From: a bacterium
Lineage (GTDB): Bacteria; J088; JAWLBW01
DNA: 64,000 bases
Direction: 5' to 3'
Assembly (NCBI GenBank): GCA_041687475.1
Contig: JAWLBW010000001.1
Location: 4,703 to 68,702 of the forward strand
Both the position numbers and the translations under genes were made by a program. Every line of letters starts with the position of its first letter. Within the stretch, counting starts at the first letter, position 1. Below the pieces are notes generated by a model that was not told the DNA's origin, ran no database searches, and worked only from the letters and a program-made list of their open reading frames with translations. Shown here piece after piece: positions 26,872-45,936 of the stretch.

Positions 26872-27022
26872 GGATGATAGGCTCACTTTTCCCCTCGTGA
26901 CGGTCTTTTCGCCGATTTGGCCGAAAAACTCATCAAAAGCCCGTCCTTTCGCCGGTTTCGACGAGAACCCGCGCCACAACGGCGATTTGCCCGGATTCAC
27001 CCGCGCGTGATAGTTTGAGTGC

Positions 27023-27956: not shown

Positions 27957-30047
27957 TCACGCCGCAGGCTCCTCGTCGTCGGAACCATAATAGTACTGGT
28001 ACTGGTAGGCATATGCCCCGTCGGTGACGTCGAGGCCGTTCAGAACGACGCCCAGCACATTGGTGTCGACCTCGACCAGACGCCGCCGGGCTTCGGCCAC
28101 CAGGTCGCGGCTGACCTTGCCGGACTTGACCACGTATAGTACGCCGTCTACCTTTCGGCCGAGTACGATGGCATCGGTCACCGGAATCACCGGGGGACTG
28201 TCGAAGACCACCCGATCGAATTCCTGTTCGAGCATCTTGAGCACTTCGTCCATGCGGGCGCTCGTCAACAGTTCGCTGGGATTCGGCGGCAATGGACCGC
28301 TGGGAATGACCCACAGATTGGGTATGTCGGTGGGCAGCATGACCGATGCGACGTCGTTCGAACCCAGAAGAAGCGTCGAGAAGCCTGCGTCGTTACGAAG
28401 GCCGAAGGTCTTGTGCAGCCTGCTTCGGCGCAGATCGGCGTCGACCAGGACCACGCGCTGTCCGGCCTGGGCCAGGGTGATACCCAGGTTGCAGGTGGTC
28501 GTCGATTTGCCCTCGAGCGGGGTCGCACTCGTGACGATGAAGGAGTGCAGCGGTTTTTCAGCCCCCAGGAACATGAGGTTCGTACGGATCGAACGGCAGC
28601 TTTCGGCGATCGTGCTCTTTGGGTGAGTGTGCACGAACAGGTCACGGTCGGTCGATTCTTCGTTAGCGTCGGCCATGTCCGGAATGACGCCGAGTAGCGG
28701 CAGCTGAACGTGACGTTCGATATCTTCGGTAGTCTTGATCGTGTTGTCGACGTACTCGAAGAAGAAGGCAAGGCCGATACCTCCGACGAGTCCCACGAGA
28801 ACGGCCAGGGCCATGTTGACCTGCACCCGCGGCTTCACGGGCCGGCTGGGTTCGAGCGCGCTGTCGATGATGCGCAGGTTGTTGGCGCGCAGCGAGCTTG
28901 TGAGATCGGCCTCCTTCAGCCGACCGAGCAGAATGTCGTACAGCTGCTGGTTTTTTTCGGCATCTTGTTGAATGGCCATGTGGCTGATGAATTTCTTGTG
29001 CAACTCGAGGGCTTCCTGTTTGGCGGTTTCGAGCTCGGCGCCCAGCGAGTTTTCTTCGGCACGCTTGAGCACGTACTCGGTACGGGCCGCTTCCAGAATC
29101 TTGGTTATCTCGCCCTCGATGCGCTGATTCACGAAGGAAATCTGGTCGTGCAGTCGGCGCATTTTCGGATGCTCGGGCAGGTAACGGGCCGAAAGCTGGC
29201 TGTGTTCGCGTTGCATGTCGATGAGTTGCTGCTTGAGATTCTGCACGAGCTGGCTCGAAAGAACCTCGACCAGTGCCTCTCGGTCGGTACCCGCCCGCAC
29301 GAGGCGGTCAAGGCGCTTCCAGCGTGCTTCTACCTCGATGCGTTCGGCCCGGGCGCGTGAATAGGCGGTGTTCAGATCGACCAGCTTCTGCAGCATCAGG
29401 TTCTGCTTGTCGTCGAGCCCCACAAGCCTGTTCTTGTTCTTGAACTCGAACATCTTCTGCTCGCTTTCGACGACCTGGTTTTTCAATTCGGCCAATCGCT
29501 CGCTCAGCCAGTCAACCGCCTGCTTGGTAAGACTCAGGCGCTGTTCGAGGTTATCTTCGATATATACTTCGGCAATTGCGTTGGCCACCCGGGTGGCTTC
29601 GGCAGGATCCGGATGATTGTAGGAAATCTTGACCAGCTGGCTTTCCTTGATTGGTGTGACCTCCAGGTGCGCAAGGAAGTAGCCCGGAGTCATGGTGACC
29701 TCCTTACCCTCCTTGCCTTCCTGCTTGAGCCCGAGCCGATCGATAACCCGGCGTGCGATGTGGTTGCTCTGGATAATGCGGTTCTGGGTGTTGTAGTAGT
29801 CCTGGTACATGTAGTAGTTGCCCGAACCGAAATCGTCGATGGACTGAAAGTTCAGTACCTTCGGCGTATCGGGCAGAATGGCGATGGTCGTCGTCGCACG
29901 ATAGATCGGCGTCTGGCTCAGGGTACCGATGAGTACGACCGTAACCAGAACGACGAAGAAGGTGGCAACGACCCAGCGTCGCTTGCGAATGACCTCCCAG
30001 AGGTCCTTGAGATGAAATGCGTTCTGCTGTGTTCCTTCCTGGCCCAC
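27957..30047 (-). CDS. wzc: Polysaccharide co-polymerase/bacterial tyrosine autokinase (Wzc/BY-kinase family)
   Basis: Two TM segments flanking a long coiled-coil periplasmic domain. Walker A GKSTTT, A' VVLVDADLRR, B VVFDSPPV. Tyr-rich tail YAYQYQYYYG. Confidence 0.85.
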   Translation of the reverse strand: MGQEGTQQNAFHLKDLWEVIRKRRWVVATFFVVLVTVVLIGTLSQTPIYRATTTIAILPDTPKVLNFQSIDDFGSGNYYMYQDYYNTQNRIIQSNHIARRVIDRLGLKQEGKEGKEVTMTPGYFLAHLEVTPIKESQLVKISYNHPDPAEATRVANAIAEVYIEDNLEQRLSLTKQAVDWLSERLAELKNQVVESEQKMFEFKNKNRLVGLDDKQNLMLQKLVDLNTAYSRARAERIEVEARWKRLDRLVRAGTDREALVEVLSSQLVQNLKQQLIDMQREHSQLSARYLPEHPKMRRLHDQISFVNQRIEGEITKILEAARTEYVLKRAEENSLGAELETAKQEALELHKKFISHMAIQQDAEKNQQLYDILLGRLKEADLTSSLRANNLRIIDSALEPSRPVKPRVQVNMALAVLVGLVGGIGLAFFFEYVDNTIKTTEDIERHVQLPLLGVIPDMADANEESTDRDLFVHTHPKSTIAESCRSIRTNLMFLGAEKPLHSFIVTSATPLEGKSTTTCNLGITLAQAGQRVVLVDADLRRSRLHKTFGLRNDAGFSTLLLGSNDVASVMLPTDIPNLWVIPSGPLPPNPSELLTSARMDEVLKMLEQEFDRVVFDSPPVIPVTDAIVLGRKVDGVLYVVKSGKVSRDLVAEARRRLVEVDTNVLGVVLNGLDVTDGAYAYQYQYYYGSDDEEPAA

Positions 30048-30059
30048 CGTTACCCCCTG

Positions 30060-30899
30060 TCAGAAGAAGCTTTGCGGAACTACGACGATATCTTCGGGCT
30101 GCAGGCGCAGGTCGCTTTCCTTGTTGTCGACGACCTTGCCCAGATTGATACGCATCTTGCGCTCTTTGCCGTTCTGCGAGCGTATTACCTGAACCTTGCC
30201 GTCGTTGGCCTTGTTGGTGAGACCTTCTGCCAGACTGACCGCCTGAAGAACGGTCAGGCCCTCGCGGTAGGGAACGACCCCCGGTTTTTTCACCTCGCCG
30301 TACACGTAGACGCCGTCGGAGCGCGGAACGAACAGAATGTCGCCGTCGCCCACGACGAGATTCAGGGTCGCTTCTCCGAAGCGCAGAAGTCGGTGGGCGT
30401 CAATGAGCACAGGTTCGGTTTCACTGGTGATGGCCGGGGGACCCGAGGTGCGATTTCCGCCCCGCACGAGAACAAGGCTCCGGGCCGCGTTCTCGAGAAC
30501 GCCACCGGCCTGCGAAACCAGATCGAGCACCGTGGTTCTACCGCTTAGCGAGTAGGGCCCGGGTTCCTTCACCATGCCGAGTACCACGGCCTTCCGGCTG
30601 CGGTATTCCTTGACCTGAACGAACACCTGCGGGTCGACGAGATAGCGCTCGGCCAACCGCGTGCGAATCAACTGCTCGATTTCGGCCGACGTATGTCCCG
30701 TGACCGCTACGGCCCCGATTAGAGGAAACCCGATGGTGCCGTTTTCGTGAACGACCGCTTCCTTGCTCAGGTCTTCTTCATCGAATACGCGAATTTCGAG
30801 CACGTCTCGTGCTCCGACCCGGTATTCGTCTGCCGCCTCGGAAATCGACGGCAACAGCATCAAGGCAATCAGGCTGCAGGTAAGCGCTATCAGTCGCAT
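30060..30899 (-). CDS. wza: Short outer-membrane polysaccharide export (OPX/Wza-family) protein lacking the C-terminal OM-spanning helix
   Basis: Signal peptide. Poly_export motif YRVGARDVLEIRVF...NGTIGFPLIG plus SLBB-like repeats. Only 279 aa, ending right after the last SLBB repeat. Confidence 0.8.
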   Translation of the reverse strand: MRLIALTCSLIALMLLPSISEAADEYRVGARDVLEIRVFDEEDLSKEAVVHENGTIGFPLIGAVAVTGHTSAEIEQLIRTRLAERYLVDPQVFVQVKEYRSRKAVVLGMVKEPGPYSLSGRTTVLDLVSQAGGVLENAARSLVLVRGGNRTSGPPAITSETEPVLIDAHRLLRFGEATLNLVVGDGDILFVPRSDGVYVYGEVKKPGVVPYREGLTVLQAVSLAEGLTNKANDGKVQVIRSQNGKERKMRINLGKVVDNKESDLRLQPEDIVVVPQSFF

Positions 30900-32161
30900 C
30901 AGAGCATTGCCTCCACTTCAAGAAAGACCTGATTGGTTTCGTAGCTGAACCAGTCGAAATCACTCTCGCGCTGCTCGCGGTTGTACCCGAGGTTTACCTT
31001 GAGCCAGTCTTCGCTTAGGGGCCGGAACTCTCCCTTTACCGAAGCGAGAAACCCCCAGTCGGTACGCGCATACGGCTCGGAATAGCGGTTGCTGAAGACA
31101 TTGCCGCCTACCGCCGCAGCCACGATGGGGGTGAAGGCGTGCCAGAATTCGGCGTAGCCCCGGTTGGAAACATAGTAGCTTGTGCTGTATGAATCGTAGA
31201 GTTCACGGGCGCCGCCGACGGTGAGGCGCGTGCGTTCACTGAATTTTTCGTTGAACTCCAGCTTGCCCAGCCAGGTGCTGGCGCGGGCGGCTGAGTTCTC
31301 GTAATCGAGGCGGCCCCACCCCAGGGCGAGAATGGCCGTCATGCGGCTCGTTACCGCACCCTGAGCGCCCAGCCAGGCTTTCCACCCGTCGGCGTCATTC
31401 TTCTGAATGGTCGAGGCGGCTTCCGAATCGAGATAACGAACGAAGTAGCCTTCACCCTCGACAAAAGCAGCCGTTTTGGGAAAGAAGCGATACGAAATGC
31501 GCCCGCGAGGGGCATGAATGTTCTTGTCGAGATACGTATAGGTCTGGGCCGAAAAACGCTCGCTGCTGAGTATGTAGCCGGCGTCGAACTGCAGGTTGCT
31601 GTCTTCCAGGTTATAGACGAGGGTCGGTTTGAATTCGTTGTGAACCAACCCGATGGGTCGGAGGTCGGCCTGCTCGTCGAAGGTGAGCTCGGTGGCCGTT
31701 ACGAAGAGGTTTTTTCGCACCAGATCGTCGCGCAGGCCAATACCGAAACCGTTGTTGAGCCGGAGGCTGAACTCGCCGAATACTTCGTGGTTGTTGAAGG
31801 TATCCCAGATGGTGGTATCGATGTTGCCATCGAAACCACCGGTGTATTTGACGCCCTGCCATGCATAGCCGGCTGACGCATGACTGTTCGTACCGAAAGG
31901 CAGGCGCAGGTTGAGCTGTGGGTTCAGCGTGAAGTAGATGTCTTCTACGGGGTCGACGCTGAAGCTGCCCGAGTCGTTTACCTTGAATACGTTGTCGTCG
32001 TAGATGGCCGAAAACGTGACCGATGGCCTTACCTCGACAGGTCCGGCCTGAAGCCGTGCCGGGCCGTCGGCCGCCTGGCTCGCGCCCGGAATAAGCGCTG
32101 CTAACAGCGCGCCTGCCGCGGCTGCAGTGATGATCCTGCTCACGATGTTCCCCCCAAACAA
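30899..32161 (-). CDS. Outer-membrane beta-barrel protein, candidate translocon partner of the short OPX
   Basis: Signal peptide IITAAAAGALLAALIPGASQA and alternating amphipathic beta-strand pattern rich in aromatic residues. It overlaps the wza start by 1 nt. Confidence 0.6.
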   Translation of the reverse strand: MFGGNIVSRIITAAAAGALLAALIPGASQAADGPARLQAGPVEVRPSVTFSAIYDDNVFKVNDSGSFSVDPVEDIYFTLNPQLNLRLPFGTNSHASAGYAWQGVKYTGGFDGNIDTTIWDTFNNHEVFGEFSLRLNNGFGIGLRDDLVRKNLFVTATELTFDEQADLRPIGLVHNEFKPTLVYNLEDSNLQFDAGYILSSERFSAQTYTYLDKNIHAPRGRISYRFFPKTAAFVEGEGYFVRYLDSEAASTIQKNDADGWKAWLGAQGAVTSRMTAILALGWGRLDYENSAARASTWLGKLEFNEKFSERTRLTVGGARELYDSYSTSYYVSNRGYAEFWHAFTPIVAAAVGGNVFSNRYSEPYARTDWGFLASVKGEFRPLSEDWLKVNLGYNREQRESDFDWFSYETNQVFLEVEAML

Positions 32162-32192
32162 GTAAGTGACCCGCCGAAGCGAGCCGGTGCGC

Positions 32193-32762
32193 TTAGCGCA
32201 CCGGCGTCGCCGGCTTTTTCGGCACGATATGATCGGCCGGTTTGTCCTTCGGCTCTACCGTTTCACCCGGTTCGATGTCGCCGTCGAGATTCTTTTCCGA
32301 GACCAGTTGTCCCGAATTGATGCGCACACAGGCGCGGGCCTGGGTAGCGAGATCGCGTACGCGTTCGGTCGCCGCCGACAGGGTTTTGGCCTCGATGTTC
32401 AGCGACTCGATATCGCCCGTGGGAATCGAAGACAGCCGCTTGGCGGCCTGACTGGCCGCATTGCGAAGATTCTGCGCCGGAACGAGCTTCTGCTCGACGC
32501 ACGAAGCGGCAAGGGAATCATTGCGTCGGCGGGCGTCGGTACGCAGCCGCGTCATGGACTCGATATGGCCGGCGATATTGTCGAGGTACTGTGTTTCTAC
32601 CTCCTGGATCCGACCCGCCAGGATCTGGCTCATCAGGGTTTCGACCCCACCAATGGCCGCCTGGGCCTGGTTCGGGTGCGCGTGCGTGAACCCGAGTTCG
32701 TGCGCGTGCGCGACACCGGGCGCAAGGCTTGCGGCCAGTATAAACATAAGCATCCGTGTCAT
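32193..32762 (-). CDS. Hypothetical secreted protein
   Basis: Signal peptide MTRMLMFILAASLAPGVAHA. His-rich HELGFTHAHPN, then a helical region. Confidence 0.45.
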   Translation of the reverse strand: MTRMLMFILAASLAPGVAHAHELGFTHAHPNQAQAAIGGVETLMSQILAGRIQEVETQYLDNIAGHIESMTRLRTDARRRNDSLAASCVEQKLVPAQNLRNAASQAAKRLSSIPTGDIESLNIEAKTLSAATERVRDLATQARACVRINSGQLVSEKNLDGDIEPGETVEPKDKPADHIVPKKPATPVR

Positions 32763-32874
32763 AAGTCACCCCAAAGACAAAAGCGTCTATCTCCAGCCTA
32801 GGAACCCGGAAGCAAACGGTCAACGGCCCGTCTCTGCAGACCTGGAACCCTCTTGCACAACCACCGCGCCTGTG

Positions 32875-33135
32875 TCACTGCGCCGTCGACCGGGTGTCGC
32901 GTTCTGCCAGCTTTACGGCGTCTTTCACAATCTCGTCGAGCAGGGGCGAGCGCAGGCGTTCTACGCCGGGTGTCGGTGGCCCTTTCTGACTTCGCTCCAG
33001 GATGAACATGACCTCGGGCTTGTGAATCTCACCCTCGACGGCCAACTGATCCATACGTATGGTCTCTGCGGCCGCCGTAATGCCGAGGAGCGACAAAAAT
33101 GCCACTGCCAGTCCCAGGAAAATGGATAGACGCAT
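32875..33135 (-). CDS. Small hypothetical secreted protein (86 aa)
   Basis: Signal peptide MRLSIFLGLAVAFLSLLGITAAA. Sits within the operon. Confidence 0.4.
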   Translation of the reverse strand: MRLSIFLGLAVAFLSLLGITAAAETIRMDQLAVEGEIHKPEVMFILERSQKGPPTPGVERLRSPLLDEIVKDAVKLAERDTRSTAQ

Positions 33136-33137
33136 GA

Positions 33138-34511
33138 TTACTTCACCGATGGTAGATAACGTTCGAGTTCACTGGGTTGTTCCCGTCGAGAAGAGCCGTT
33201 GCGCTCGTCGTCTGCAGGCGCGGAAGCCGGAGGTGATTCGGGCGCGGGTCGAATATGGTCGGAGTCTGCCTGTTCGCCGGCTCCGTCGTTGTTGCCAGCA
33301 GCCGAGTCGCCACTTTCCGTTTCAACGTCGGTCACGGGAATCGAGCCGCCTGTCTCGATGGGTGCCGGCAGTGATTTCAGCTTTTCGATGGCCCGTTGCA
33401 CCTCACCGCGTTTTCCATGCGTCAATAAATCGAGCGCTTTCTCGAGATAGGCCAATGCTCTGGCCCTTCCCGTAGAGGTCGAGGCATCCAGGGCGTAGTA
33501 CCTTCCGGCTGCGAGGGCATACGCGGGCTCCTCGACGCCGGAAGCGGCTGCCTCCTTGAGTGACGGCAATGCCTGCGACGCGAGATCGCGGTCAATGAGT
33601 AAGTTCGCCAGGTTGAGATGGGCTTCGCCGAGGCGAGGGGCGCTGGCAGCGGCCGAACGGAAATCTGTTTCGGCTTCGTCCCAGCGTTGCAGCACGGCAA
33701 ATACGTAACCTCTATCGTTGAGGGCAGGTGCGAACGTCGAACGCATTTCGAGCGATTCATTCAGGTGTTCAAGGGCAAGCGCCCATTCCTCTTTCTCCAA
33801 AGCCAGTCGAGCCAGTTGCCAGAAGACAACCCCCTTATCTACGGTGGGCGAATCGGTAAGGGTGGTCAGCAACTCTTCGGCGAGGGTGGTGTTGCCCTGT
33901 TGTGCGTGCACGCGGGCAACGACCAGGCGGGCCTCATCCTGGCGTTGATCGAGCAGCAGCGCGCGGCTCGCCGACTCGAGCGCCTTGTCGAAGTCGTCGG
34001 CGCGACGGGATACCTCGGCGAGAAACACCCACCGGCTGGCGTCGGATGGTCGGTCGTCGACGAGTTGGACGGCGAGTTTAGCCGCTTCGTCTGCACGACC
34101 CGACCGAATCAGGGCATCGGCCAGGACGGCCACGGCCGCAGGGTGGCCCGGTCGTAGAAACAGGGCATCGCGCACGGGGGCGATGGCAAGCGCCGGGTAG
34201 CCGTGATTCAGCAGCAGGCGCCCCAACTCGACCCGCAGTTCGACATCATCGGGCACCCGGCCCAGGCGTTCGATCAGGTGCCTTGCCTTCTCGTGCACGT
34301 CGGTATCGTCGAGGCCGCGTAGGGCTTCGGCGTAAAGGTTTGTCCTCTCGCTTTCAGGACCGGTCGCCCGCGTCACCGCGTCGGCATGGTTCTCCATGGC
34401 AACGGGTGCTTCCGGCGCCGGCTTTGTGACTTCGGCAACATCGAGCTTTCGCGAGGGCGATGAGGTGGCGCAGCCGGCTGCCGCCAGACAGAGGACTATG
34501 AGTTTTTTCAC
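33138..34511 (-). CDS. TPR-repeat lipoprotein (457 aa) with an acidic, Pro-rich C-terminal tail
   Basis: GTG start overlapping the upstream stop (GTGA). Lipobox LCLAAAGC. At least 8 TPR-like 34-residue units. Confidence 0.65.
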   Translation of the reverse strand: MKKLIVLCLAAAGCATSSPSRKLDVAEVTKPAPEAPVAMENHADAVTRATGPESERTNLYAEALRGLDDTDVHEKARHLIERLGRVPDDVELRVELGRLLLNHGYPALAIAPVRDALFLRPGHPAAVAVLADALIRSGRADEAAKLAVQLVDDRPSDASRWVFLAEVSRRADDFDKALESASRALLLDQRQDEARLVVARVHAQQGNTTLAEELLTTLTDSPTVDKGVVFWQLARLALEKEEWALALEHLNESLEMRSTFAPALNDRGYVFAVLQRWDEAETDFRSAAASAPRLGEAHLNLANLLIDRDLASQALPSLKEAAASGVEEPAYALAAGRYYALDASTSTGRARALAYLEKALDLLTHGKRGEVQRAIEKLKSLPAPIETGGSIPVTDVETESGDSAAGNNDGAGEQADSDHIRPAPESPPASAPADDERNGSSRREQPSELERYLPSVK

Positions 34512-37500
34512 TGGAGCGCCTCCCTGCCTTCTGCCGTGCGAAATACCAGATCGTCGTCATGAAAGAAGGTATGCTGCTCGCGAAGGACCTTTCCGAGAAG
34601 GCCGCGCAGGCGTTTGGTGCCGACCATGTTTCCGTCGAGGCCGTCGGCGGCAACCTCTTCCGAGCTTGTGCGTACTGCCGCAATCATGGGCACCGGCTCG
34701 TGACCCTTGTCTTTTGCAGCCAACAGATGTGGCGACAGTCCGTCGGTAAGCAGGCGTACGCGGCTGGGTTGGGTACTGAGGGCCGCTCTGATGCGGCCTG
34801 TCCACTCGTTTTCCATCTTGAGGTCGCCGGCCCGTTCAAGGGCGAGGTTCCAGGCTTCGAAAGCTTTGTCCTCGACGGGCAGCGCCTTTTCTTCAAGTTC
34901 GAATTTGTAGATTTCGGCTTCCTCGGAACTCAGGCCGTCTGGCGTGGGGGCCGAAAAGAGCGACTCGGCAAAGTGGGCGTACGCCTCGCCTATACGGAAA
35001 AGCGCCGCGACGGCCCAGTGTGGGTGACCGGCCTCTACGACACGCGTATACGACGCCTGTAGATTCTTGAGACGTGTGGCCTTGTTCTCGAGAATGCTCG
35101 CCAGACGGTCCATATTGCGTGGGAGCACGATGGCGCGGTATCGCTCACGCTCGAGTTCGGCAAGAGCGAAGCGGGCAGCCCCCGCCGTCCAGAGGTCGGG
35201 TTCGCCCTGATCACGCAGCCGGTTTTCAAGAGCGACCGCCTGCTGTAGAAGCCGCTTTTGTTCGCCCCCCTTTACCAGCATGGCCGCGCTGTAGGCTGCA
35301 AAGGGGGCCTTTTTGTCGTCTGAGCGACTGGCAGCGAACGATTTATAGCGCTCGACCGCCTGAGCGGTTTCTCCGGCCGCTTCCCACTGCACGGCGGCAC
35401 GAAGCAGGGTGTCGCTGGCCTCGGTCGCCGACCTTCCGTAGTTGTTCCAATGCTGTTCGAAAAACCTGGCCGCTTGCCTGTGTTCTCCGATCAGACCGCT
35501 CAGCGAGGCCACGTTGAAGAGGGCGTCTGCCGCCTCTTCGGAACGCGGATACTTTTCTACGACGAGAGCGTAGGCCGCGATGGCGCGCCGGTGATCGAGT
35601 GCGTTCTGCAGAATATGCCCGCGGCGAAAGGCGGCGCGGGAAGCGAATTTTTCCTTGCCGTGTCGTTCCAGTATTGACGCGTACAAATCGAGTGCCTTGA
35701 TCGTGTGACCGGCCTTTTCGTAGTTATAGGCTGCGTTGAACAGAGCCGCCACGCCGGCGGGTGTCGCAGGATACCGTCGGTAAACGGCAAGGTACCTGGT
35801 TGCTGCTTCCTCGGCGTCGCCCAGTCTGTCCTTGGCATGCGCTTCCCTGAACATGGCGCCACCCACCATGTCAAGCACGTATCGCCGGGCGACCTTGTCG
35901 GCGGGTAGACCCCTTTCGAGAAGCCGGTCGGCCCAATCGGCGAGATCTCCGTAGCGTTCTTCCTTCGCATAAGAGTCAATGACCGTTCGGATGGCATCGA
36001 GCACGAGGGGCGAATAAGGGTACGATTCGATCATGGCCGACAGGCTGCCGCGACAGGCGTCCTCCAGACCTTGCCTGCAAAGCTCGTGCCCTGCGTGATA
36101 GAGCACCCGTGGCGTATTCTCATCCGTCGGCAGCAAGTCGGCATACTGTCGACTGACTTCGACCAGTCGGTCGATGTTGGTCGGGTTCTGCTCGTAGAGC
36201 CGCCGGGCTGCAAGGACCGAGTTGTAGGCGGCGGTGTGCGCGATACCGGTCGTCGGGTCGGGGGCCGTTCGTGCGACCAGTGTATAGTGGCTCAGGGCAT
36301 CGGCGTAGGCTTTGCGATCATACAGAAGTTCGGCCAGATAGAAATTGATCTGACCTGCCCGGGCGTGCTCGGGAAAGTGTGCCAGATACAGCCGGTAACC
36401 CTCTTCGGCGGGCTTGCGGCTGGCATCGTTTCCATCACCCCATTGCTCGTGATGAAAGGTCGAGTACTCGAACAGATAGCGCTCGACCAGTGCATCGGCT
36501 TTTTCACGCAGGGTCGCCCGGGTGGCATTGGCAGCGTACCAGGCCGAGCCCGGAAGGAACTGCGTGGCAAGCCGTCGGCGTTCATTGACGGCCGTTACCT
36601 TTTCCCGCATCTGATGAAGCGATTGAACCTTGCGGCCTGCAGCACGTAGGTTTTCGGGGGCTTCGGGCCACCGTGCTTGTGCAACGGTGTAGGCGCTTAC
36701 CGCCGACATGAAGTCGGTGCTCTCGTAGAAAATGTCGGCTATGCGTCGCAGCAGCCTGTCGTCGTAGGACCGCTGCCCCCGATTTTCCATATCTTCAAGA
36801 GCCTGGGATAACCCCATGCCTTCAACGTAGCTGATGGCAAGGTACTGCATGGCCTCGTTCAACAGATCGGGGCGTTCACGGCCCATGTCGGCCAGCCGGG
36901 TAAAGGTCGAAATTGCCTCTGCATAAGCGTTCTGGCGATAGAGAGACCAGGCCAGCTTGTAGATGGCGCGATCCATCCAGGGGCCCTCTTCGGCAAGGGC
37001 GGCTTCATAGAAACGCGCGGCAGAGGCAATCCGGTGTCGGTCGAAGTGATAGTCGCCGATTCGAACGAGAATTTCTGCTCGCAGCCTGCTTTCTGCCGAC
37101 TCGGCCAGGAGCTCTTCGAAAGCGAGTACGGCTCTTCGTTCCTCGCCCATTTCCTGTAGTGCGTAGCCCTTCAGGTACCATGCAATCGCGCGGTTGTCTG
37201 CACCGCCCTTTCCGGCTAGCAAGCGCTCAAGGGTGGCGAGGGCAGTGCCGTAGTTCTTGCGGGGCTGCCTCTTCTCCGTTTCATCGGGAAGGGCCAGGTA
37301 ACGATTCATCTGCTCGGCGTAATGTTGATCGGCAGACTCCATTTGAAGCACCGCGAGGCGCAACAAGGCTTCAGAAACCTGGGGTGAGTCTGCGTGATTG
37401 GAGACGAAGCTTTCGAGGCGTGCCTCGGCCACCCGGCGCTGCTTCGCGGTTTCCGTTTCCAGCGGTACCCTTAGTGCCTCATAGCGCTTTTCTATCGCGT

Positions 37501-37696
37501 TGCGGCTTTGCGTGTGTTGCTTCGTCAGAACTGCGCCAATCTGCTTCTCGGCCGCATCAAGGTTACGCTCGGTAAGCAGCAATCTGAGCTCGGTTTCATC
37601 GTACGAAATCCGTGCCGAAGGTTCGTAGGCGGCGAGCCGTAGTGGCGGAGATGCCAGGAAAATCGCTACGCTCAAGAAGACACGGCGCACGATCAT
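34508..37696 (-). CDS. Large TPR-repeat protein (1062 aa), exported
   Basis: N-terminal signal/anchor MIVRRVFLSVAIFLASPPLRLAA. TPR-like repeats throughout (W/Y-L-G-A-Y-A spacing). ATGA overlap with the upstream gene. Confidence 0.65.
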   Translation of the reverse strand: MIVRRVFLSVAIFLASPPLRLAAYEPSARISYDETELRLLLTERNLDAAEKQIGAVLTKQHTQSRNAIEKRYEALRVPLETETAKQRRVAEARLESFVSNHADSPQVSEALLRLAVLQMESADQHYAEQMNRYLALPDETEKRQPRKNYGTALATLERLLAGKGGADNRAIAWYLKGYALQEMGEERRAVLAFEELLAESAESRLRAEILVRIGDYHFDRHRIASAARFYEAALAEEGPWMDRAIYKLAWSLYRQNAYAEAISTFTRLADMGRERPDLLNEAMQYLAISYVEGMGLSQALEDMENRGQRSYDDRLLRRIADIFYESTDFMSAVSAYTVAQARWPEAPENLRAAGRKVQSLHQMREKVTAVNERRRLATQFLPGSAWYAANATRATLREKADALVERYLFEYSTFHHEQWGDGNDASRKPAEEGYRLYLAHFPEHARAGQINFYLAELLYDRKAYADALSHYTLVARTAPDPTTGIAHTAAYNSVLAARRLYEQNPTNIDRLVEVSRQYADLLPTDENTPRVLYHAGHELCRQGLEDACRGSLSAMIESYPYSPLVLDAIRTVIDSYAKEERYGDLADWADRLLERGLPADKVARRYVLDMVGGAMFREAHAKDRLGDAEEAATRYLAVYRRYPATPAGVAALFNAAYNYEKAGHTIKALDLYASILERHGKEKFASRAAFRRGHILQNALDHRRAIAAYALVVEKYPRSEEAADALFNVASLSGLIGEHRQAARFFEQHWNNYGRSATEASDTLLRAAVQWEAAGETAQAVERYKSFAASRSDDKKAPFAAYSAAMLVKGGEQKRLLQQAVALENRLRDQGEPDLWTAGAARFALAELERERYRAIVLPRNMDRLASILENKATRLKNLQASYTRVVEAGHPHWAVAALFRIGEAYAHFAESLFSAPTPDGLSSEEAEIYKFELEEKALPVEDKAFEAWNLALERAGDLKMENEWTGRIRAALSTQPSRVRLLTDGLSPHLLAAKDKGHEPVPMIAAVRTSSEEVAADGLDGNMVGTKRLRGLLGKVLREQHTFFHDDDLVFRTAEGREALQ

Positions 37697-40269
37697 TGCT
37701 TTCCTCCCTCGACTGCGATACCGAATGCCGGCGCCCCCTGGTCATCGGTTTTCAGGTCCAGCCGATAGCGGCGACCACGTACGAATTCGTAATACAACGA
37801 CCCGGCCACCCGCACTTCTTCGGCTCCGTCGTCGAAGACGAGTAGAATGTTGACCGTGTGTGGACCAGGTTGGAGGAACGTCGCCTCTGCGACCCCTCGC
37901 TCTACTGTGAGGGGGCGGTGGTCTACCGTTATCCGCGCTCCCGTGAGATTGCCCCAGGGTGCATCTGCAGGCGCGTAAAAACGGAGGGCGGTTGCGTCGT
38001 GCCTGGCCATGTCGCGGTCCATCTCCAGTGCATTCCGGAGATGTCGGTTCAGGCGGGCCTGAAAAATGCGCTGTTCCGACAGGGCCTGCGCCTGTGCCGA
38101 TGCGCGTCGATCGGCGGCCTCGATGCGGGGTTGCAGTCGAGACGGCGCTTCCGTTTCGCCCGAAACGGAAGCAGGACTCCGTATGGCGGCCTGAAGCTCA
38201 CGGTGTGTCTCGCCAATCGCCTCCAGGTCATTCTGCTCGAGTGCCGAGAGGGCCCTTACCCGCTCGACCGACTGTTCGCGTGCCTTCCAGGCTACGTCTA
38301 CGCTGCCGAGTTTGGCGTCGGCCACAAGACTACCGACCGCATCGTTGATGGCGAGCGCGGCGGCCAGAGTCATTTCGCCTCGAAGTTCCTGCGCATCGAC
38401 GGAGAGCGTGGCGGCCTGCCCACGCATTTCCTGCAGTTCGGCATACATTCTGACGACATGCGGGCGCATCTGCTCGGCCGATGCACGACGCCGGGTCTCG
38501 AGAGTGGCCCGGACCGCTCCCAACTCATAGTGCGCACTCTGCAGCTGGTTGTGCAGTTTACGCAGACCGGCTATTTGGGCCCGGCTGTACGCCTGTTCGA
38601 GAACATCGAGCAGGGTGCCGATTACCTGCATCGAACTACCCGCCAGCGCGCGCCGAGCATCGTTGATTCGCACTTCGTTGCTGTCCATCTGTGAGAATAT
38701 GGCATTGACGGCATCGGCGGCAGGCATGCCGTCTCGACCGGAACGGCCGGTTTCCATGGTCAGGGCCTGCATGTATCGACTTCCTTCGGCGTATTGCAGA
38801 AGATGGATCAGGTCGCGCCGCTTCTCGGTCGTTTTCTCGCCCAGATGCGCCAGCTCGGCTCGCTGGATGTCGAGGTCGGACAACAAGGTCAATGCCTCCT
38901 GGAATCGCAGTGCATCGCGACCGCCCAGCCTTGCTCCGAGCCGTTTGGCGGTGCGCACCAATTCGCTCTCCATGCCGGACACCGAGCGGGAAAGCTCTTG
39001 CTGACGCGCCAGTAGACGTTGCGCGCTCTTCGGCTCACCCCAGGTGTTTTCGGCAAGGAGCTGCACGGCGTGCAATGTCGTCATAACGTCGAAGAGCTGC
39101 CGGTTCAGGTTGTCCATGCCGCGAACGAGTCTGTCGGCTTCCTGAACCTGCGGCTGCTCACGCAGCCAGGCCAGCAGTTCGATGTCCTGCCGTGCCTCTT
39201 CCGAAAAGTCTCCCGTGAGGTTGTCGAGCAGCATGTCGTAGATTTCGGCCGGCCGTTCGTGGGCCTGCAGATCGACAATGCGGTCGTTCACGGCTCCGTA
39301 GTGGGCGATGTAGGACGCGAATCTCTGTTGTGCCTGGGTGAAGGCTTCACCCTCGAGCAGAAGGTACCCATACAGAAGGCGTGCCTTCGGCAGAAGTCGG
39401 CTGAGCGGTCTGTCGAGCGCGAGCCGCAGTAGTTGTGTCTGGGCTCTTTCCGTCTCGCCGCGTGCCAGTTCGACCCATGCTCCTTCGTAAAGCGCACGAT
39501 CGTAGTAGGGAGATTTTTCTTCAAGAGTCGAGTACCACGCATGGGCCTGAGCGTAATCGCCCGCTTTGAAATACAGCCTGCCCAGAGCCAATACCGAAAG
39601 GTCGAAGAGGTCTGAATTGGGTGCGGTTTTTTGGGTAACCGTCGTGAAACGGTCTGCGGCGGCTTGCGCCGATCCGTCGAGCAGGGCTAAAACGCCCAGG
39701 AAGTATTCGGCTTCGGCATCGGCATCGGCGCTGGCCAGCTCGGCGAATACGGTCTGGGCATGTTCCGTCGCACCGTGGGAAAAAGCGGTACGGGCTGCCT
39801 CCAGAAGAAGGGAGCGCTCCGTTTCGTCGGTGGCCTGCCTGCGATACGCAGCCAACGCTTCGAATGCCGGTTCGATTCTTCCGGTGCGCAGTTCGAGCCT
39901 CGTCAGTGCCGCCAGGGCCTGGAGCCTGAGGGGGCCACTTGCGAGCGACAGGTCTTCGAGCAGTCTTCGGGCGCTGCCGTAAAGGCCGCTTTCGAGGTAG
40001 GCCTGCGCAAGCGTCCAGCGGGCAGTTTCTCCGGTGGCCGTTCCGGCGTAGGTAGATTCCCGCAACACGTTCAGCAGCGGCGCGATGGCCTGCACGGGTT
40101 CTCCGCCGGCGAGGTAGCTTCGCGCAAGACGAATCTGGTCATCGCCGTAATATGGTGGCGGAGCAGCCTTCGTGTGCCCCGGGAACACGAGTACTCCAGC
40201 CAGTGAGATGGCGACGGCAGCCAGAAAGTATGTCACTCTTTGCCTTCGCGACATGCTGCATCTCCACAT
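37693..40269 (-). CDS. TPR plus long coiled-coil plus C-terminal beta-domain protein (858 aa)
   Basis: N-terminal TM/signal. About 350 aa of TPR, then about 350 aa of heptad-rich Q/E/R/A/L sequence. The last ~100 aa are beta-rich with LQPGPHTVNILLVF...YRLDL. Confidence 0.6.
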   Translation of the reverse strand: MWRCSMSRRQRVTYFLAAVAISLAGVLVFPGHTKAAPPPYYGDDQIRLARSYLAGGEPVQAIAPLLNVLRESTYAGTATGETARWTLAQAYLESGLYGSARRLLEDLSLASGPLRLQALAALTRLELRTGRIEPAFEALAAYRRQATDETERSLLLEAARTAFSHGATEHAQTVFAELASADADAEAEYFLGVLALLDGSAQAAADRFTTVTQKTAPNSDLFDLSVLALGRLYFKAGDYAQAHAWYSTLEEKSPYYDRALYEGAWVELARGETERAQTQLLRLALDRPLSRLLPKARLLYGYLLLEGEAFTQAQQRFASYIAHYGAVNDRIVDLQAHERPAEIYDMLLDNLTGDFSEEARQDIELLAWLREQPQVQEADRLVRGMDNLNRQLFDVMTTLHAVQLLAENTWGEPKSAQRLLARQQELSRSVSGMESELVRTAKRLGARLGGRDALRFQEALTLLSDLDIQRAELAHLGEKTTEKRRDLIHLLQYAEGSRYMQALTMETGRSGRDGMPAADAVNAIFSQMDSNEVRINDARRALAGSSMQVIGTLLDVLEQAYSRAQIAGLRKLHNQLQSAHYELGAVRATLETRRRASAEQMRPHVVRMYAELQEMRGQAATLSVDAQELRGEMTLAAALAINDAVGSLVADAKLGSVDVAWKAREQSVERVRALSALEQNDLEAIGETHRELQAAIRSPASVSGETEAPSRLQPRIEAADRRASAQAQALSEQRIFQARLNRHLRNALEMDRDMARHDATALRFYAPADAPWGNLTGARITVDHRPLTVERGVAEATFLQPGPHTVNILLVFDDGAEEVRVAGSLYYEFVRGRRYRLDLKTDDQGAPAFGIAVEGGKQ

Positions 40270-40272
40270 GGG

Positions 40273-40953
40273 TCACTGCACCGCAAACCTGAGAACGGGG
40301 CGTTCCCGCAGGTTCTTGCTTCCGCCCTGATCGACGGCTTCGACGCTCAGTTCGACCGCTTTTCCGCGGGGCGTCGAAAAGTGATACTGGCTTCGCATGT
40401 CGAAAGAGTACTGTTCCATATAGGTGAAGACGCCGTAACCGGTGGCCCTGAGGGTGTAGATGGCGTCAATGGTATGGTTACCGGGTAGCACGCTCGCATC
40501 GAAAACGACGAACTGTGGGTTGGCGCCGATACGCTTGGGGTCGTTGTTCGTGTATACGGTAAAGCCGTCAAGCTTGTATTCGATGCTTTCGATTTCGAAG
40601 GCGCCGCCGAGTTGGTTGTCGTGCACGATCAGAAGTTTGGTGCCCGTGACGAAACCCTGAGAGATGTCTTCTCCCAGGGTCAGAATTCGGCTCTTCAAAT
40701 CCTGAATCTGGCCCTGCAGGGCATGCATGCGCTCTTCGACGTTTTCGAGTCTGGGATGCGAGTCTCGTTTCTTCACGCTCTCGCCCAGCTCGGAACTGAC
40801 CCTGACATTCTCCAGCCCGGCCGTTTCAGGATCGCTCGTCGACGTGACGCCCGCAGAGTGCGGCTCGGCGCGGGCGCTGTCGGGAATACGGGCTCCAAGG
40901 CTCAGGAGAACGGCAAGAACGGCCAGAATGAAAATGCTACGGCTGAAAGTCAT
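40273..40953 (-). CDS. Membrane-anchored coiled-coil protein whose C-terminal beta-domain is related to that of the 858 aa protein
   Basis: TM anchor MTFSRSIFILAVLAVLLSLG. Coiled coil ENVEERMHALQGQIQDLKSRIL. C-terminal LPGNHTIDAIYTL...YHFST. First gene of the operon. Confidence 0.5.
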   Translation of the reverse strand: MTFSRSIFILAVLAVLLSLGARIPDSARAEPHSAGVTSTSDPETAGLENVRVSSELGESVKKRDSHPRLENVEERMHALQGQIQDLKSRILTLGEDISQGFVTGTKLLIVHDNQLGGAFEIESIEYKLDGFTVYTNNDPKRIGANPQFVVFDASVLPGNHTIDAIYTLRATGYGVFTYMEQYSFDMRSQYHFSTPRGKAVELSVEAVDQGGSKNLRERPVLRFAVQ

Positions 40954-41099
40954 GAATCCCCCCCAGAGACTAACCCGGCGGCCACCCATAAGGCAGCCAC
41001 ACACTCTCCAGCTTACGCCCGGCTTGCCGTTTCGTCAATAACTTGACCGATGACGGGGCGTCGTTTTAAGCTGGCTGAAGATAAGACTTTGGAGGAAGC

Positions 41100-42047
41100 A
41101 TGCATCTGGTAACAGGCGGGGCGGGATTCATAGGCTCGCATCTGGTAGAGGCGCTCCTGAAGGAAGGAAAGCGGGTCAGGGTGGTCGACAACTTCTCCAG
41201 CGGTCGTGTCGAGAACCTGCGGCCTTTCCTCAAGGACATTGAATTGCTGACAGGCGACGTTTCCGATGAAAGCGCGGCACGTGCGGCGGCTAAGGGAGTC
41301 GAGGTGGTGTTTCACCAGGCGGCTCTGCCCTCGGTACCTCGGTCCATTCAGCAACCCGTGGCTTCGCACCAGGCCAATGCCACCGGCACGCTGCAGATGC
41401 TGCAGGCCGCAACGCAGGCCGGGGTACGGCGTTTCGTCTATGCAGCCAGCTCGTCGGCCTACGGCGACACGCCCACGCTTCCGAAAATCGAAACCATGCC
41501 GCCCCGGCCCCGCTCGCCCTATGTGGCCGCCAAGCTTACGGGCGAACTCTACTGCCAGTCCTATTATCATGTGCACGGTCTGGAAACAGTCTGCCTGCGC
41601 TACTTCAACATCTTCGGGCCGAGACAAGATCCGGAATCGCCTTATGCCGCCGTAATTCCGCGTTTTCTCGAAGCTCTGCTGTCGGGGCACTCACCCGTCA
41701 TCTTCGGCGACGGAAACCAGACGCGTGATTTCACCTTTATCGAAAATGCCGTCCAGGCCAACCTGCGGGCGGCCGAAGCCGAAGGGGTTGGCGGAGAGGT
41801 ATTCAACGTCGCATGCGGAAAGCGGGTGTCATTGAACCACTTGCTCGAAATGCTTCAGGTTGAAACCGGCGTTCGCATCTCGGCCACCTTCGGCGAGCCG
41901 CGCCCGGGCGACGTTCGAGACTCCCTGGCTTCGATCGACAAGGCCCGCGAAAGGTTGGGCTACCGGCCTTCCATTGATGTCAAAGAAGGCATTGCCCGCA
42001 CGGTTGCGTGGTTCACGCAGACCACGGGGCTGCGCAGGGCTGCTTGA
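41100..42047 (+). CDS. NAD-dependent sugar epimerase/dehydratase (UDP-hexose 4-epimerase-like)
   Basis: GGAGFIGSHL Rossmann motif, catalytic S..YxxxK (YVAAK), 315 aa. Confidence 0.8.
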   Translation: MHLVTGGAGFIGSHLVEALLKEGKRVRVVDNFSSGRVENLRPFLKDIELLTGDVSDESAARAAAKGVEVVFHQAALPSVPRSIQQPVASHQANATGTLQMLQAATQAGVRRFVYAASSSAYGDTPTLPKIETMPPRPRSPYVAAKLTGELYCQSYYHVHGLETVCLRYFNIFGPRQDPESPYAAVIPRFLEALLSGHSPVIFGDGNQTRDFTFIENAVQANLRAAEAEGVGGEVFNVACGKRVSLNHLLEMLQVETGVRISATFGEPRPGDVRDSLASIDKARERLGYRPSIDVKEGIARTVAWFTQTTGLRRAA

Positions 42048-42071: not shown

Positions 42072-42108
42072 AATCCGGCCGCCGGGATAGCCCGGGGCCG
42101 GATTTTCA
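42072..42108. terminator. GC-rich hairpin between the convergent epimerase and MshEN genes
   Basis: AATCCGGCCGCCGGG-atag-CCCGGGGCCGGATT followed by TTT. Confidence 0.4.
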
Positions 42109-43128
42109 GGCTTGAACGGCGGCCTTCATCGGGTAATGACGCTCGATGAGGGTACGCACGATGGCGCGGGGGCTCACAATAGGCATGATGTTGTAGCCGC
42201 TTTCCCTGCCCGCGACCTGGGAGACGAGCCTGTTTTCCGGGTCGGCCGTGAGTACGAGCAGGTTGCCTTCGTGAATCGCCAGCGGAAGAATGAGCAGTTT
42301 ACGCGCCGTGCCCGGAAGAATCAGCTTCAGAATGTCCGGTGAAACCGCGATCGGGTGATACGGATCAACAGTCGCGCACTGTGCATGACGGCTGAGGTAA
42401 CGCGACACCGTTCTCGCGTCGATAAGGTTGTCTTCCATCAGCGCTTCGCCTACATGCATGCGAGGGTGCTTCGCCCGGGCGTTTTCGATCTCGGCCTGGG
42501 TGACCAGGCCATCTTCGATCAGCATGTCGCCGAGACGTTCGGCACTCGAGCCCTTGCGCCGACGCACGTACGCGAGGGTGATGCCTCCGGCGGTGAAGAG
42601 AATCAGGTCGCGGCCGACCTCATCCTTGAACCCTTCAAGAAAAGGCCGTTCCTCGACCTTGGAGGGGTCGACATGGTTCGAGAAGAAGTCGGTCGGAACC
42701 TGCAGAAGATCGCGGCGATACTGGTGATACAGCGACTCGGGAAGAATGCGCACAATGACTTCCTTGCGCATCAGGTCGGCAACGTCGCTGACGGTTGAGG
42801 CCTGAGGAAGGTCCATCGCGCCGATCAGAAGCCGCTTGGGAGACGCCGCTATGGGCACGATGTTCTTCTGCAGGGCAAACTGACGGGGAAACATGGCGAC
42901 TACGTTGAGTCGGGCGTTGATTTCCTCACCCATGCGCAGCAGGGGCAAGCCATGAGCGCGATTCAGAAGGTTTGCCAGCGTATAGCGGCTGATCACACCC
43001 ATGTCGAACAGGTGGGTTCCAAGGCGTCCGCCGATTTCGCGCTGACGGGCAAGGGCCTGTTGAAGAACATCATCGGTAATGAGGTTCTGTGAGAGAAGCC
43101 GTTCTCCGGTTTTCAACGCGTATCCCAT
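42106..43128 (-). CDS. Protein built from tandem GspE-N/MshEN-type modules, a putative c-di-GMP receptor
   Basis: Residues 6-58: KTGERLLSQNLITDDVLQQALARQ, REIGG, then RLGTHLFDMGVISRYTLANLLNRA (24+5+24). A second, more degenerate module follows at 198-248 (RLGDMLIEDGLVTQAEIENARAKH ... HVGEALMEDNLIDARTVSRYLSRH). Confidence 0.6.
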   Translation of the reverse strand: MGYALKTGERLLSQNLITDDVLQQALARQREIGGRLGTHLFDMGVISRYTLANLLNRAHGLPLLRMGEEINARLNVVAMFPRQFALQKNIVPIAASPKRLLIGAMDLPQASTVSDVADLMRKEVIVRILPESLYHQYRRDLLQVPTDFFSNHVDPSKVEERPFLEGFKDEVGRDLILFTAGGITLAYVRRRKGSSAERLGDMLIEDGLVTQAEIENARAKHPRMHVGEALMEDNLIDARTVSRYLSRHAQCATVDPYHPIAVSPDILKLILPGTARKLLILPLAIHEGNLLVLTADPENRLVSQVAGRESGYNIMPIVSPRAIVRTLIERHYPMKAAVQA

Positions 43129-43146: not shown

Positions 43147-43908
43147 TTACCTTGCCGTCTGGCCGCCGTCGATGAGCAGGACTTCACCGGTCATGTAGTC
43201 GCTTGCCTGCGAGGCGAGGTAAACTGCAAGAGGGCCGAGTTCCGCGTCGCGCCCGAACCTTCTGGCCGGAATCTTTCGCAGCATCGCCGTTGAAACGGCT
43301 TCGCTTTCCCGACCCTCTGCCGTCATCTCGGTTTCAAAGTAGCCTGGTGCGATGGCGTTTACCTGAATGTTATACCTGGCCCATTCAATTGCCAAGGTAC
43401 GGGTGAGTTGAATCAGGCCGCCTTTGGTGGCACAGTAGGCGGCGAGTCCGGGCTCGCCCACGGTTCCGAACATCGAGGCGACCTGAATGATCTTGCCCCT
43501 GCCTGCCTGGCGCATCGGCTTGAATGCCGCCTGGCTGAAAAGGAACGGAGCCGTCAGATTGACTCCGAGGGTGCGTTCCCATTCTGTAAGAGGCATTTCA
43601 TGCGAGGGTGCGGTTACCGCAATTCCCGCATTATTGACGAGAACGTCCAGGGCCCCGAAGGCTTGAAGACAGGCTGAAACCGCCTTCTCAGGAAAAGACG
43701 TATCGGCGACGTCTCCGGTCACAAATTCGGCGGTGCTACCCCGTGCGCGTATTTCCCGGGCCGTTTCCTCGAGCCCCTCGCTGCTCCGGGCGACAAGAAA
43801 AAGGCGGGCGCCCGCTTCGGCAAGGGAAAGGGCCATGCTTTTTCCGAGACCGCGGCTGGCCCCGGTAACAAGCGCCGTCTTACCCGATAAATCGATTGTA
43901 AAAGCCAT
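43147..43908 (-). CDS. Short-chain dehydrogenase/reductase (KduD/FabG-like)
   Basis: TGASRGLGKS glycine motif, NNAG, catalytic YxxxK (YCATK). Confidence 0.75.
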   Translation of the reverse strand: MAFTIDLSGKTALVTGASRGLGKSMALSLAEAGARLFLVARSSEGLEETAREIRARGSTAEFVTGDVADTSFPEKAVSACLQAFGALDVLVNNAGIAVTAPSHEMPLTEWERTLGVNLTAPFLFSQAAFKPMRQAGRGKIIQVASMFGTVGEPGLAAYCATKGGLIQLTRTLAIEWARYNIQVNAIAPGYFETEMTAEGRESEAVSTAMLRKIPARRFGRDAELGPLAVYLASQASDYMTGEVLLIDGGQTAR

Positions 43909-43954: not shown

Positions 43955-44347
43955 TCAGTTCGAAGCCGGCTCGGCCTCGGCAAGGTGGCGCCGAATCGTA
44001 GCAAGGAACTGATCGATGTCGATGGGCTTGGTTACGTAGTCGTTGGCGCCGCAGGCGAGTCCCGCCTCAATTTCTTCCGGACTGTTGCGTACGGATACGA
44101 AAACGACGGGTATGCGACGATATTCGGGGTGCGCCTTGATGGCCTTGCAGAGTTCGTAGCCGTCGACCCAGGGCAGCATGATGTCGAGCAGAATCAGGTC
44201 GGGACGGTCGACGCGTATGCGCGAGATGAGCTTGATGCCGTTGGCGGCCGTAAGCACGTCGTATTGCTCACTCTCGAGGGTGGCCCGCAGAAATTCGCGC
44301 ACGTCCGGGTCGTCTTCGACCAGCAATATTTTTTTGGGGTTCGACAT
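43955..44347 (-). CDS. Stand-alone response-regulator receiver domain protein
   Basis: 130 aa REC domain: acidic pocket LLVEDD, phospho-acceptor LILLDIMLP, S/T FVSV, K in VTKP. ATG at 44347 verified. Confidence 0.75.
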   Translation of the reverse strand: MSNPKKILLVEDDPDVREFLRATLESEQYDVLTAANGIKLISRIRVDRPDLILLDIMLPWVDGYELCKAIKAHPEYRRIPVVFVSVRNSPEEIEAGLACGANDYVTKPIDIDQFLATIRRHLAEAEPASN

Positions 44348-44631
44348 TATCCTGCAATCTGCCCTGACGAAAGATAGAACAACATAGTCTCTGCCTTTCC
44401 CTTTGTCAACCGGAATCGCCGAAACCTCGACGGCGATGCCGATGAAGGCTGTTGTATTCCGCCCCGCAAGCGGGTAGAATTCACCTGCAGAGACGATACC
44501 TCGGGCAATCGGGCCCGGCTGCCCGGCGGGCAGGTGCAAGGGGGCCGGGCGGCCATGAGCGCAATGGGGTCATCGTCACTCGTCAGTACCCTATAATGCA
44601 CTTAGGTGGGGAAACCCGCAGGAGACGACCG

Positions 44632-45924: not shown

Positions 45925-45936
45925 GGAGGAGTCGGA

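Follow-up and report, generated by a model that had tools for sequence, protein, structure and literature searches.

A free-standing tandem MshEN protein encoded beside a single-domain response regulator and a dehydrogenase

The gene, its product and its neighbours in the operon

The window, which is the whole stretch of 64,000 nucleotides analysed here (contig JAWLBW010000001.1), contains at positions 42106..43128 a gene for a free-standing protein with two MshEN modules, referred to below as (MshEN)2. The original prediction had placed the gene correctly, and had given no strand. The open reading frame was found on the minus strand, where it runs from ATG to stop over 340 codons, encoding a protein of 340 amino acids (aa), and the plus strand of the same interval is interrupted by many stops in that frame.

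The product had been described as a tandem MshEN protein, and this description is borne out by the profile searches, in which it matches the Pfam family MshEN (PF05157) at E 2.5e-15 and the NCBIfam model NF053729 (“c-di-GMP_motif”, a model of 53 positions with a curated cut-off of 38 bits) at 78.3 bits, in each case over two stretches. All the peptides quoted in support of the description are found at the residues given for them. The motifs were also scored against the published strict pattern, at 11 key positions per 24-mer (22 in total), and in 2000 shuffles of the 340-aa protein, a strict score of 17/22 was never reached, with 13/22 being reached twice (0.1%). The MshEN match of the protein is far beyond chance.

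The protein had further been held not to be a GspE/PilB secretion ATPase, which agrees with the Pfam and NCBIfam scans, in which no T2SSE (PF00437) ATPase domain was found. The PilB equivalog TIGR02538 matches the protein only over residues 3-124 of the model, and no catalytic or other output domain was found in the scans. The product of 42106..43128 is a tandem MshEN protein that lacks an ATPase, and as such adds an uncharacterised member to a well-known domain family.

The (MshEN)2 gene is the last of three minus-strand genes in head-to-tail order. The first of these (43955..44347) encodes a single-domain response regulator (REC) of 130 aa (Response_reg, E 6e-29), and the second (43147..43908) encodes a classical short-chain dehydrogenase/reductase (SDR) of 253 aa, as counted from Met33 of the listed open reading frame (adh_short, E 3e-62, together with NCBIfam SDR subfamilies). 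The gap between the REC and SDR genes is 46 nt, and that between the SDR and (MshEN)2 genes is 18 nt, including a GGGGAGG ribosome-binding site. A promoter-like TTGACA-17-TATGTT sequence, which is a pattern match only (10/12 in a consensus scan), is located upstream of the REC gene, at 44381..44409 on the minus strand. At the other end, the (MshEN)2 gene converges on a gene for a sugar epimerase, and the gap of 58 nt between them contains a GC-rich hairpin of 14 bp (42072..42104), with MFE values of -31.7 and -34.7 kcal/mol (z -3.0 and -3.8 against shuffles), which is likely to be a bidirectional terminator.

The possibility of a truncated PilB/GspE pseudogene was ruled out, because all nine sequences, those of the window protein and of eight full-length orthologs (336-354 aa), agree in length and in both ends, and a stable hairpin followed by a convergent gene closes off the (MshEN)2 gene.

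Five orthologous loci (L001-L005) were compared by tblastn, and the REC-SDR-(MshEN)2 triad is kept in all four of those that extend upstream of (MshEN)2 (L001-L004). The REC is 72-84% identical in these four loci, and the SDR orthologs, of 251-253 aa, are always encoded directly upstream of (MshEN)2. L001 is equally diverged (59% identity) and retains only the triad, with flanks that are entirely different and no export cluster. Because L001 keeps these three genes while everything else differs, the conserved unit is, on the evidence of gene order, the triad itself, a predicted three-gene operon. Wang et al. 2016 (PMC5013675) list, in their Supplementary Table 4, fusions of the types MshEN-REC, REC-MshEN_N, and REC-MshEN-T2SSE, and these fused architectures provide a domain-fusion argument for a partnership between the REC and (MshEN)2.

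Two unequal modules and a conserved linker

The AF2 model, which was built from the nine-sequence family alignment (mean pLDDT 78, pTM 0.51), has, besides two copies of a four-helix bundle with an alpha/beta subdomain, a beta-hairpin at residues 175-188. The top Foldseek match is 5HTL (MshE with c-di-GMP), at a target-normalised TM of 0.73, and the search also places the modules on the c-di-GMP complexes of PilF GSPII-B, with 5HTL and 8PKZ/8PDK all recovered at a probability of 1.0. The PDB sequence matches are solely the N-domains of PilF, PilB, and MshE, with PilF being the best (E 2.3e-19). Both modules share the MshEN fold and domain identity. The first 20 residues of the model are of low confidence, so the occlusion of the module 1 site cannot be judged from it.

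Module 1 (residues 6-140; 42709..43113, minus strand) combines, in the AF2 secondary structure, a four-helix bundle that carries the motif with an alpha/beta subdomain of the T2SSE_N type, and it scores 54.8 bits when scanned alone against NF053729, above the cut-off. Its motif of 24+5+24 residues (residues 6-58; 42955-43113) reads KTGERLLSQNLITDDVLQQALARQ, then the five-residue spacer REIGG, and then RLGTHLFDMGVISRYTLANLLNRA. This motif had been said to match almost perfectly, which is correct for 17 of the 22 key positions under the strict pattern (8+9), or 19/22 under the relaxed one, and overstated for the rest, given K6 in place of R, T7 in place of L, N15 in place of G, F41, and A58 in place of Q. 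The departure at F41, a Phe where the strict pattern permits L, V, or I, is conservative, and the other four are clear. Module 1 retains Q29 and R35, its Leu clusters, and, in each of the two motifs, the critical Gly at position 3.

Module 1 of three orthologs scores 62.4, 50.8, and 45.4 bits, which means that it exceeds the NF053729 cut-off of 38 in these three and in the window protein. The invariant residues of motif II in the family are R35, G37, L40, G44, V45, L51, and L55 (positions 1, 3, 6, 10, 11, 17, and 21), and Q29 of motif I is also invariant. Position 1 of motif I drifts among the orthologs (K/R/E/H/P/Q), as does position 24 of motif II (A/H/Q/Y/R), and one ortholog, P0008, has an Asp at position 3 of motif I, the site of the critical Gly.

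Published mutational and binding data offer a guide to these substitutions. The Gly at position 3 of the MshEN motif is critical, and the L10A change at position 2 of motif I impairs the function of MshE (PMC5013675). A Lys at position 1 is found in PilF GSPII-B, which binds with a KD of 6 nM. A single change from Gln to Glu weakens binding 77- to 158-fold, with only the double change abolishing it (PMC11731258). Module 1 may plausibly bind c-di-GMP, to judge from its residues, with an affinity that T7 and A58 perhaps lower in the window protein. [quoted passage not shown] Of the six positions at which GSPII-A departs from the consensus, five carry the consensus residue in the window protein (Q29, R35, G37, L51, and L55), and by inspection of the sequence, only five residues precede motif I, without the T/S/D...E/Q/D N-cap pattern that blocks GSPII-A.

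Module 2 (residues 198-335; 42124..42537, minus strand; pLDDT of about 78-94) is a degenerate MshEN domain, as had been anticipated for the second copy of the motif. This copy, at residues 198-248 (42385-42537), reads RLGDMLIEDGLVTQAEIENARAKH, PRM, and HVGEALMEDNLIDARTVSRYLSRH, with a spacer of three residues rather than five, and has 13/22 strict key positions (8+5), that is, nine departures. Scanned alone against NF053729, module 2 fails to reach the cut-off of 38 bits, with a score of 31.3, and the values for three orthologs are 26.9, 19.5, and 48.1 bits. The positions of the motif II Arg and Gln are occupied by His residues (H225 and H248) that are invariant in the family, and position 221, that of the motif I Gln, varies among H, N, and F, so that both Gln positions are His in the window protein. 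In the PDB sequence search, module 2 aligns to residues 4-142 of Myxococcus xanthus PilB, with a gap of two residues exactly in the spacer between the motifs. These substitutions and the shortened spacer suggest that module 2 has probably lost canonical c-di-GMP binding. The two modules are not equivalent, the site of module 1 being intact-looking and that of module 2 degenerate.

The original prediction had considered the protein to be built only of MshEN modules, which needs to be amended, as the modules are separated by a family-specific linker of 57 residues (residues 141-197; 42538..42708, minus strand), for which no Pfam match was found when it was scanned alone. In the nine-sequence alignment, its invariant residues are T146, F149, H152, D154, E160, P162, F163, E165, G166, and R173 in the first part, and L175, I176, F178, L185, A186, R189, K192, S194, and A196 in the second, where AF2 predicts two strands (175-180 and 183-188) that form the beta-hairpin of residues 175-188. 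The linker signature is partly common to two distant relatives, P0017 and P0031.

A DUF4388 match over residues 175-231 was rejected as an extra domain, given that it falls below the cut-off (E 0.009), and the linker alone matches nothing. This match is most likely explained by the MshEN_N-like helical insert of the PATAN domain.

A possible adaptor and its genomic context

The reading preferred here, which is given roughly an even chance of being correct, is that the (MshEN)2 product would be a cytoplasmic signalling adaptor with no enzymatic part, in which module 1 binds c-di-GMP, module 2 and the linker offer an interaction surface, and the protein acts together with the co-transcribed receiver. 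Module 1 would bind one extended monomer of c-di-GMP in the manner of MshE, with K6 and R35 stacking on the guanines, the Leu clusters packing on one guanine (L22, L26, and L36) and on the other (L51, L55, and position 2), the backbone amides at G8 and G37 forming hydrogen bonds with the ligand, and Q29 contacting the ribose-phosphate. Module 2 and the conserved beta-hairpin linker would form a surface for protein interactions, through which the protein would relay to a partner, by protein-protein contact, whether c-di-GMP is bound and probably also whether the receiver is phosphorylated. The REC and the SDR are the best-supported candidates for this partner, and the Wzc-type export machinery is a weaker one.

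The main rival, which is possible and distinctly less probable, is a scaffold that is blind to the nucleotide, in which neither module binds c-di-GMP at physiological concentrations, and the MshEN/GSPII fold serves for protein contacts, as in XpsE-N and PilF GSPII-A. Much of what favors the scaffold also speaks against the adaptor, beginning with GSPII-A itself, the closest solved relative of module 1 and a proven non-binder. In the window protein, T7 at position 2 of motif I, the N at position 10, and A58 all count against ligand binding, and the four clear departures of module 1, the conservative F41, and the nine departures of module 2 may be compared with XpsE, which lost binding through comparable substitutions. 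The variation at position 1 of motif I and the change from Gly to Asp at position 3 in P0008 point the same way. The scaffold is less easily reconciled with the scores of module 1, which lie above the NF053729 cut-off in all four members tested, with the near-invariance of motif II, which argues for constraint on the site, or with the consensus residues that module 1 has where GSPII-A deviates and the short, five-residue N-terminus that lacks a GSPII-A-like N-cap pattern.

Two further points count against the adaptor. The first is the lack of any nearby gene for c-di-GMP turnover, given that no GGDEF, EAL, or HD-GYP genes were found in the window, either among the scanned open reading frames or in a six-frame motif search. 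The second is that the role of the SDR is left unexplained. A c-di-GMP riboswitch was not detected in the window, and neither the scanned open reading frames nor the six-frame search yielded a credible PilZ domain, the C-terminus of an FHA protein showing nothing recognisable as PilZ.

The genes on the other side of (MshEN)2 are arranged as had been claimed. The NAD-dependent sugar epimerase/dehydratase (41100..42047, plus strand; Epimerase, E 1.7e-63; TviC/GalE-like, below the equivalog cut-offs) is transcribed toward (MshEN)2 and away from an export operon on the minus strand (27957..41004). This operon comprises orf243, genes for three TPR proteins (858, 1062, and 457 aa), and orf189, together with genes for a BBP2_2/EpsL-like beta-barrel, a Wza/EpsE-like protein, and a Wzc-like PCP and tyrosine kinase. 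The Wzc-like protein has Wzz, GNVR, and AAA_31 domains (the cytoplasmic kinase part covering about residues 460-696), with no MshEN_N, and aligns to EpsG over residues 63-273 only. A PATAN protein encoded at 27023-27793 is also MshEN_N-like, and is nearer to wzc than (MshEN)2 is.

From this arrangement, the original prediction had derived a local input of c-di-GMP and phosphorelay signals to polysaccharide export, with (MshEN)2 acting on the adjacent Wza/Wzc/TPR machine, by docking on the Wzc kinase domain, for example. This model now appears doubtful, somewhat more so than the scaffold. It is favored by the epimerase and TPR/export genes that adjoin (MshEN)2 in the window and in L003, L004, and L005 (with a partial epimerase in L002), and by the nature of the export genes, which are EpsE/EpsF/EpsG/EpsL-like, given that the EpsG kinase of the Methylobacillus type carries a fused MshEN_N. 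The window Wzc, to judge from its alignment with EpsG, lacks this N-terminal piece, for which an MshEN acting in trans could substitute, and NfrB shows that MshEN can gate polysaccharide synthesis.

Against this model, the (MshEN)2 transcription unit is a separate one, cut off from the export operon by the convergent epimerase gene and the strong hairpin. The neighborhood of L002-L005 is collinear with the window through RNase G, CinA, FHA, ECF sigma, LemA, REC, SDR, (MshEN)2, epimerase, orf243, and the TPR genes, and because the collinearity spans the whole region, the adjacency to the export cluster is part of a lineage-wide gene order. The collinear block exceeds 20 kb and includes housekeeping genes (RNase G and CinA), and in L001, the triad occurs without the cluster. 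Module 1 has only a generic likeness to the N-terminus of EpsG (E 0.002-0.16), the (MshEN)2 protein has no kinase domain and is no fusion of the EpsG type, and the PATAN protein is the closer of the two MshEN-like neighbors of wzc. The scan of window open reading frames did not recover a glycosyltransferase, flippase, or polymerase, and the literature searched contains no link between MshEN and a Wzc-type kinase beyond the table of Wang et al. The link between (MshEN)2 and polysaccharide export is positional only.

It is improbable that the protein regulates, or acts as a decoy for, the motor of a type IV pilus or a type II secretion system whose genes lie elsewhere, by competing or co-assembling with PilB/GspE-type ATPases or with PilM/GspL/PilZ partners. 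All the solved relatives are N-domains of PilB, PilF, MshE, and XpsE, and domains of this type mediate contacts with PilZ and GspL (7LKM and 4PHT), but the scanned window open reading frames and the called genes of the orthologous loci yielded no pil or gsp genes, and (MshEN)2 belongs to no gsp/pil/msh operon, its conserved operon partners being the REC and the SDR. Least probable of all is an adaptor with two inputs, in which module 1 would sense c-di-GMP and module 2 would bind another ligand or the phosphorylated receiver, having been repurposed, as might be read from the invariant His225 and His248, the shortened spacer, and the conserved beta-hairpin linker, with their joint state gating Wzc-type export in trans in place of the MshEN_N that is fused to EpsG.

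The family and its relation to known MshEN systems

The exact family is rare, with about 10 sequences recovered by a word-indexed search: the window protein, eight full-length orthologs (55-59% identity), and one fragment. One of the metagenome-assembled genomes in which the family occurs is GCA_041690355.1. An exhaustive profile search gave a single 50%-identity cluster at E 5.7e-183, beyond which the values fall off to 1e-37. The scan of genome contigs yielded one true ortholog locus, L006, on the same contig as L001, and two weak partial matches (L008 and L009, 23-26% identity). A further match, L007, lies within an open reading frame of 565 aa, and was ruled out as a free-standing homolog. 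The nearest distant relative, P0017, is encoded on a contig of 3.3 kb, where it adjoins bacA, an uninformative context, and a homolog search returned P0017 alone.

The architecture is far more widespread than the family. Among the best 150 representatives of the profile search, 74 are of no more than 400 aa, and about 29 of these 74 have two 53-residue motifs, roughly 145-210 residues apart according to a table of motif spacing. When ten representatives were scanned with Pfam, eight had two MshEN stretches and no other clear domain, and the other Pfam matches in the ten fell below the cut-offs, except for two weak DUF4388 matches without a qualifying stretch. The window protein conforms to this architecture, being no longer than 400 aa and having no other clear domain. 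The free-standing arrangement of two MshEN modules is common among the database representatives, and is not new. The catalogue of Wang et al. 2016 (PMC5013675) already includes (MshEN)n-T2SSE, PA3740 as a free-standing protein, and (MshEN_N)2, as well as 22 MshEN genes in Myxococcus xanthus.

The (MshEN)2 protein by itself reveals no new mechanism, and is not a new kind of protein. [quoted passage not shown] The databases contain many MshEN proteins without an output domain, and no study characterising a free-standing protein with two MshEN modules was found in the literature searched. Free-standing MshEN proteins may be the counterpart of the single-domain PilZ adaptors, and the family described here is a compact test case, with an intact-looking site, a degenerate site, and a fixed operon shared with a receiver and a dehydrogenase.

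One close likeness is to the uncharacterised free-standing (MshEN)2 proteins of the databases, such as P0020, P0023, P0053, and P0066, which, like the window protein, are of about 300-370 aa and have two MshEN stretches with no further clear domain. Most of these proteins differ from it in having both motifs intact, with spacers of five residues, and the linker signature is absent except in P0017 and P0031. The five distant relatives that were aligned (P0017, P0031, P0104, P0018, and P0065) are 21-27% identical to the window protein. PA3740 of Pseudomonas aeruginosa (MshEN - xT2SSE_N1; PMC5013675, Supplementary Table 4) is also free-standing, and lacks an ATPase, but has one 53-residue motif and a divergent T2SSE_N1, whereas the window protein contains two complete modules and is encoded in another genomic setting.

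In polysaccharide production, NfrB (GT2-MshEN) and EpsG (MshEN_N-AAA_31 tyrosine kinase) are precedents for control of the MshEN type, although in both of these the sensor is fused to the output enzyme, whereas in the window, it is a separate protein, encoded in a different transcription unit. The MshE of Vibrio cholerae (MshEN, 5HTL; PMC5013675) resembles the window protein in the four-helix bundle and alpha/beta subdomain of each module, and in the 24+5+24 logic of module 1. In MshE, however, the MshEN domain is the N-terminus of a T2SSE ATPase, whereas two copies stand alone in the window protein, in which four consensus positions of module 1 are occupied by K, T, N, and A, and module 2 has a three-residue spacer and His substitutions. 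In the GSPII-A/B/C array of Thermus thermophilus PilF (6F8L, 9G1W, and 8PDK), binding-competent and degenerate copies are also mixed in tandem, but there, three modules are fused to an ATPase and it is the first that is dead, whereas in the window protein, it is the second that looks degenerate, and nothing in the PilF alignment corresponds to its long, conserved beta-hairpin linker.

An MshEN_N-like motif beside the export operon

The DUF4388/PATAN protein (256 aa; 27023-27793, + strand; DUF4388 87.3 bits, cut-off 25) contains, at residues 74-126, an MshEN_N-like 53-residue tandem motif, which is matched by the c-di-GMP motif model NF053729 at 32.7 bits (E 4.6e-8), with 15 of the 22 key positions retained under the strict reading, and 19 of the 22 under the relaxed one. 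The gene is convergent with the Wzc-like gene and lies approximately 164 nt from its stop, which places it nearer to the export operon than the gene of the two-MshEN-domain protein, (MshEN)2. The family search gave no match for orf236 (26830-27540, - strand), which overlaps the PATAN gene and is probably not a real gene.

Genes around the REC-SDR-(MshEN)2 operon

An ECF sigma factor gene, a gene for a putative anti-sigma factor of the zf-HC2 type (a weak match, E 0.035), and a LemA gene (45238-46620 and 44635-45180, + strand) are divergent from REC-SDR-(MshEN)2, and are kept in synteny in most of the orthologous loci. The gene of a 353-aa protein with an N-terminal FHA domain (46614-47675, - strand) is syntenic across L002-L004; the middle region of this protein has a weak receiver-like match below the cut-off (E 0.009), and its last ~110 residues have no assigned domain. 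In one orthologous locus, L003, an acyl-CoA dehydrogenase gene (6755-7921) is inserted between the response regulator (REC) and the dehydrogenase/reductase (SDR), a hint that the SDR substrate may be an acyl group rather than a sugar.

The export operon and its known counterparts

Elsewhere in the window, Pfam at E <= 1e-4 matches none of three consecutive ORFs of 763, 296, and 271 aa (17335-21378, - strand). The export operon (27957-41004, - strand) comprises Wza-, Wzc-, and EpsL-like genes, together with two unknown ORFs and three genes for large TPR proteins (858, 1062, and 457 aa). The scan of ORFs in the window detected no glycosyltransferase, flippase, polymerase, or priming transferase, and the biosynthesis genes must therefore be situated elsewhere. 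The Wzc-like protein resembles a fusion of EpsF and EpsG that lacks the first ~62 residues of EpsG.
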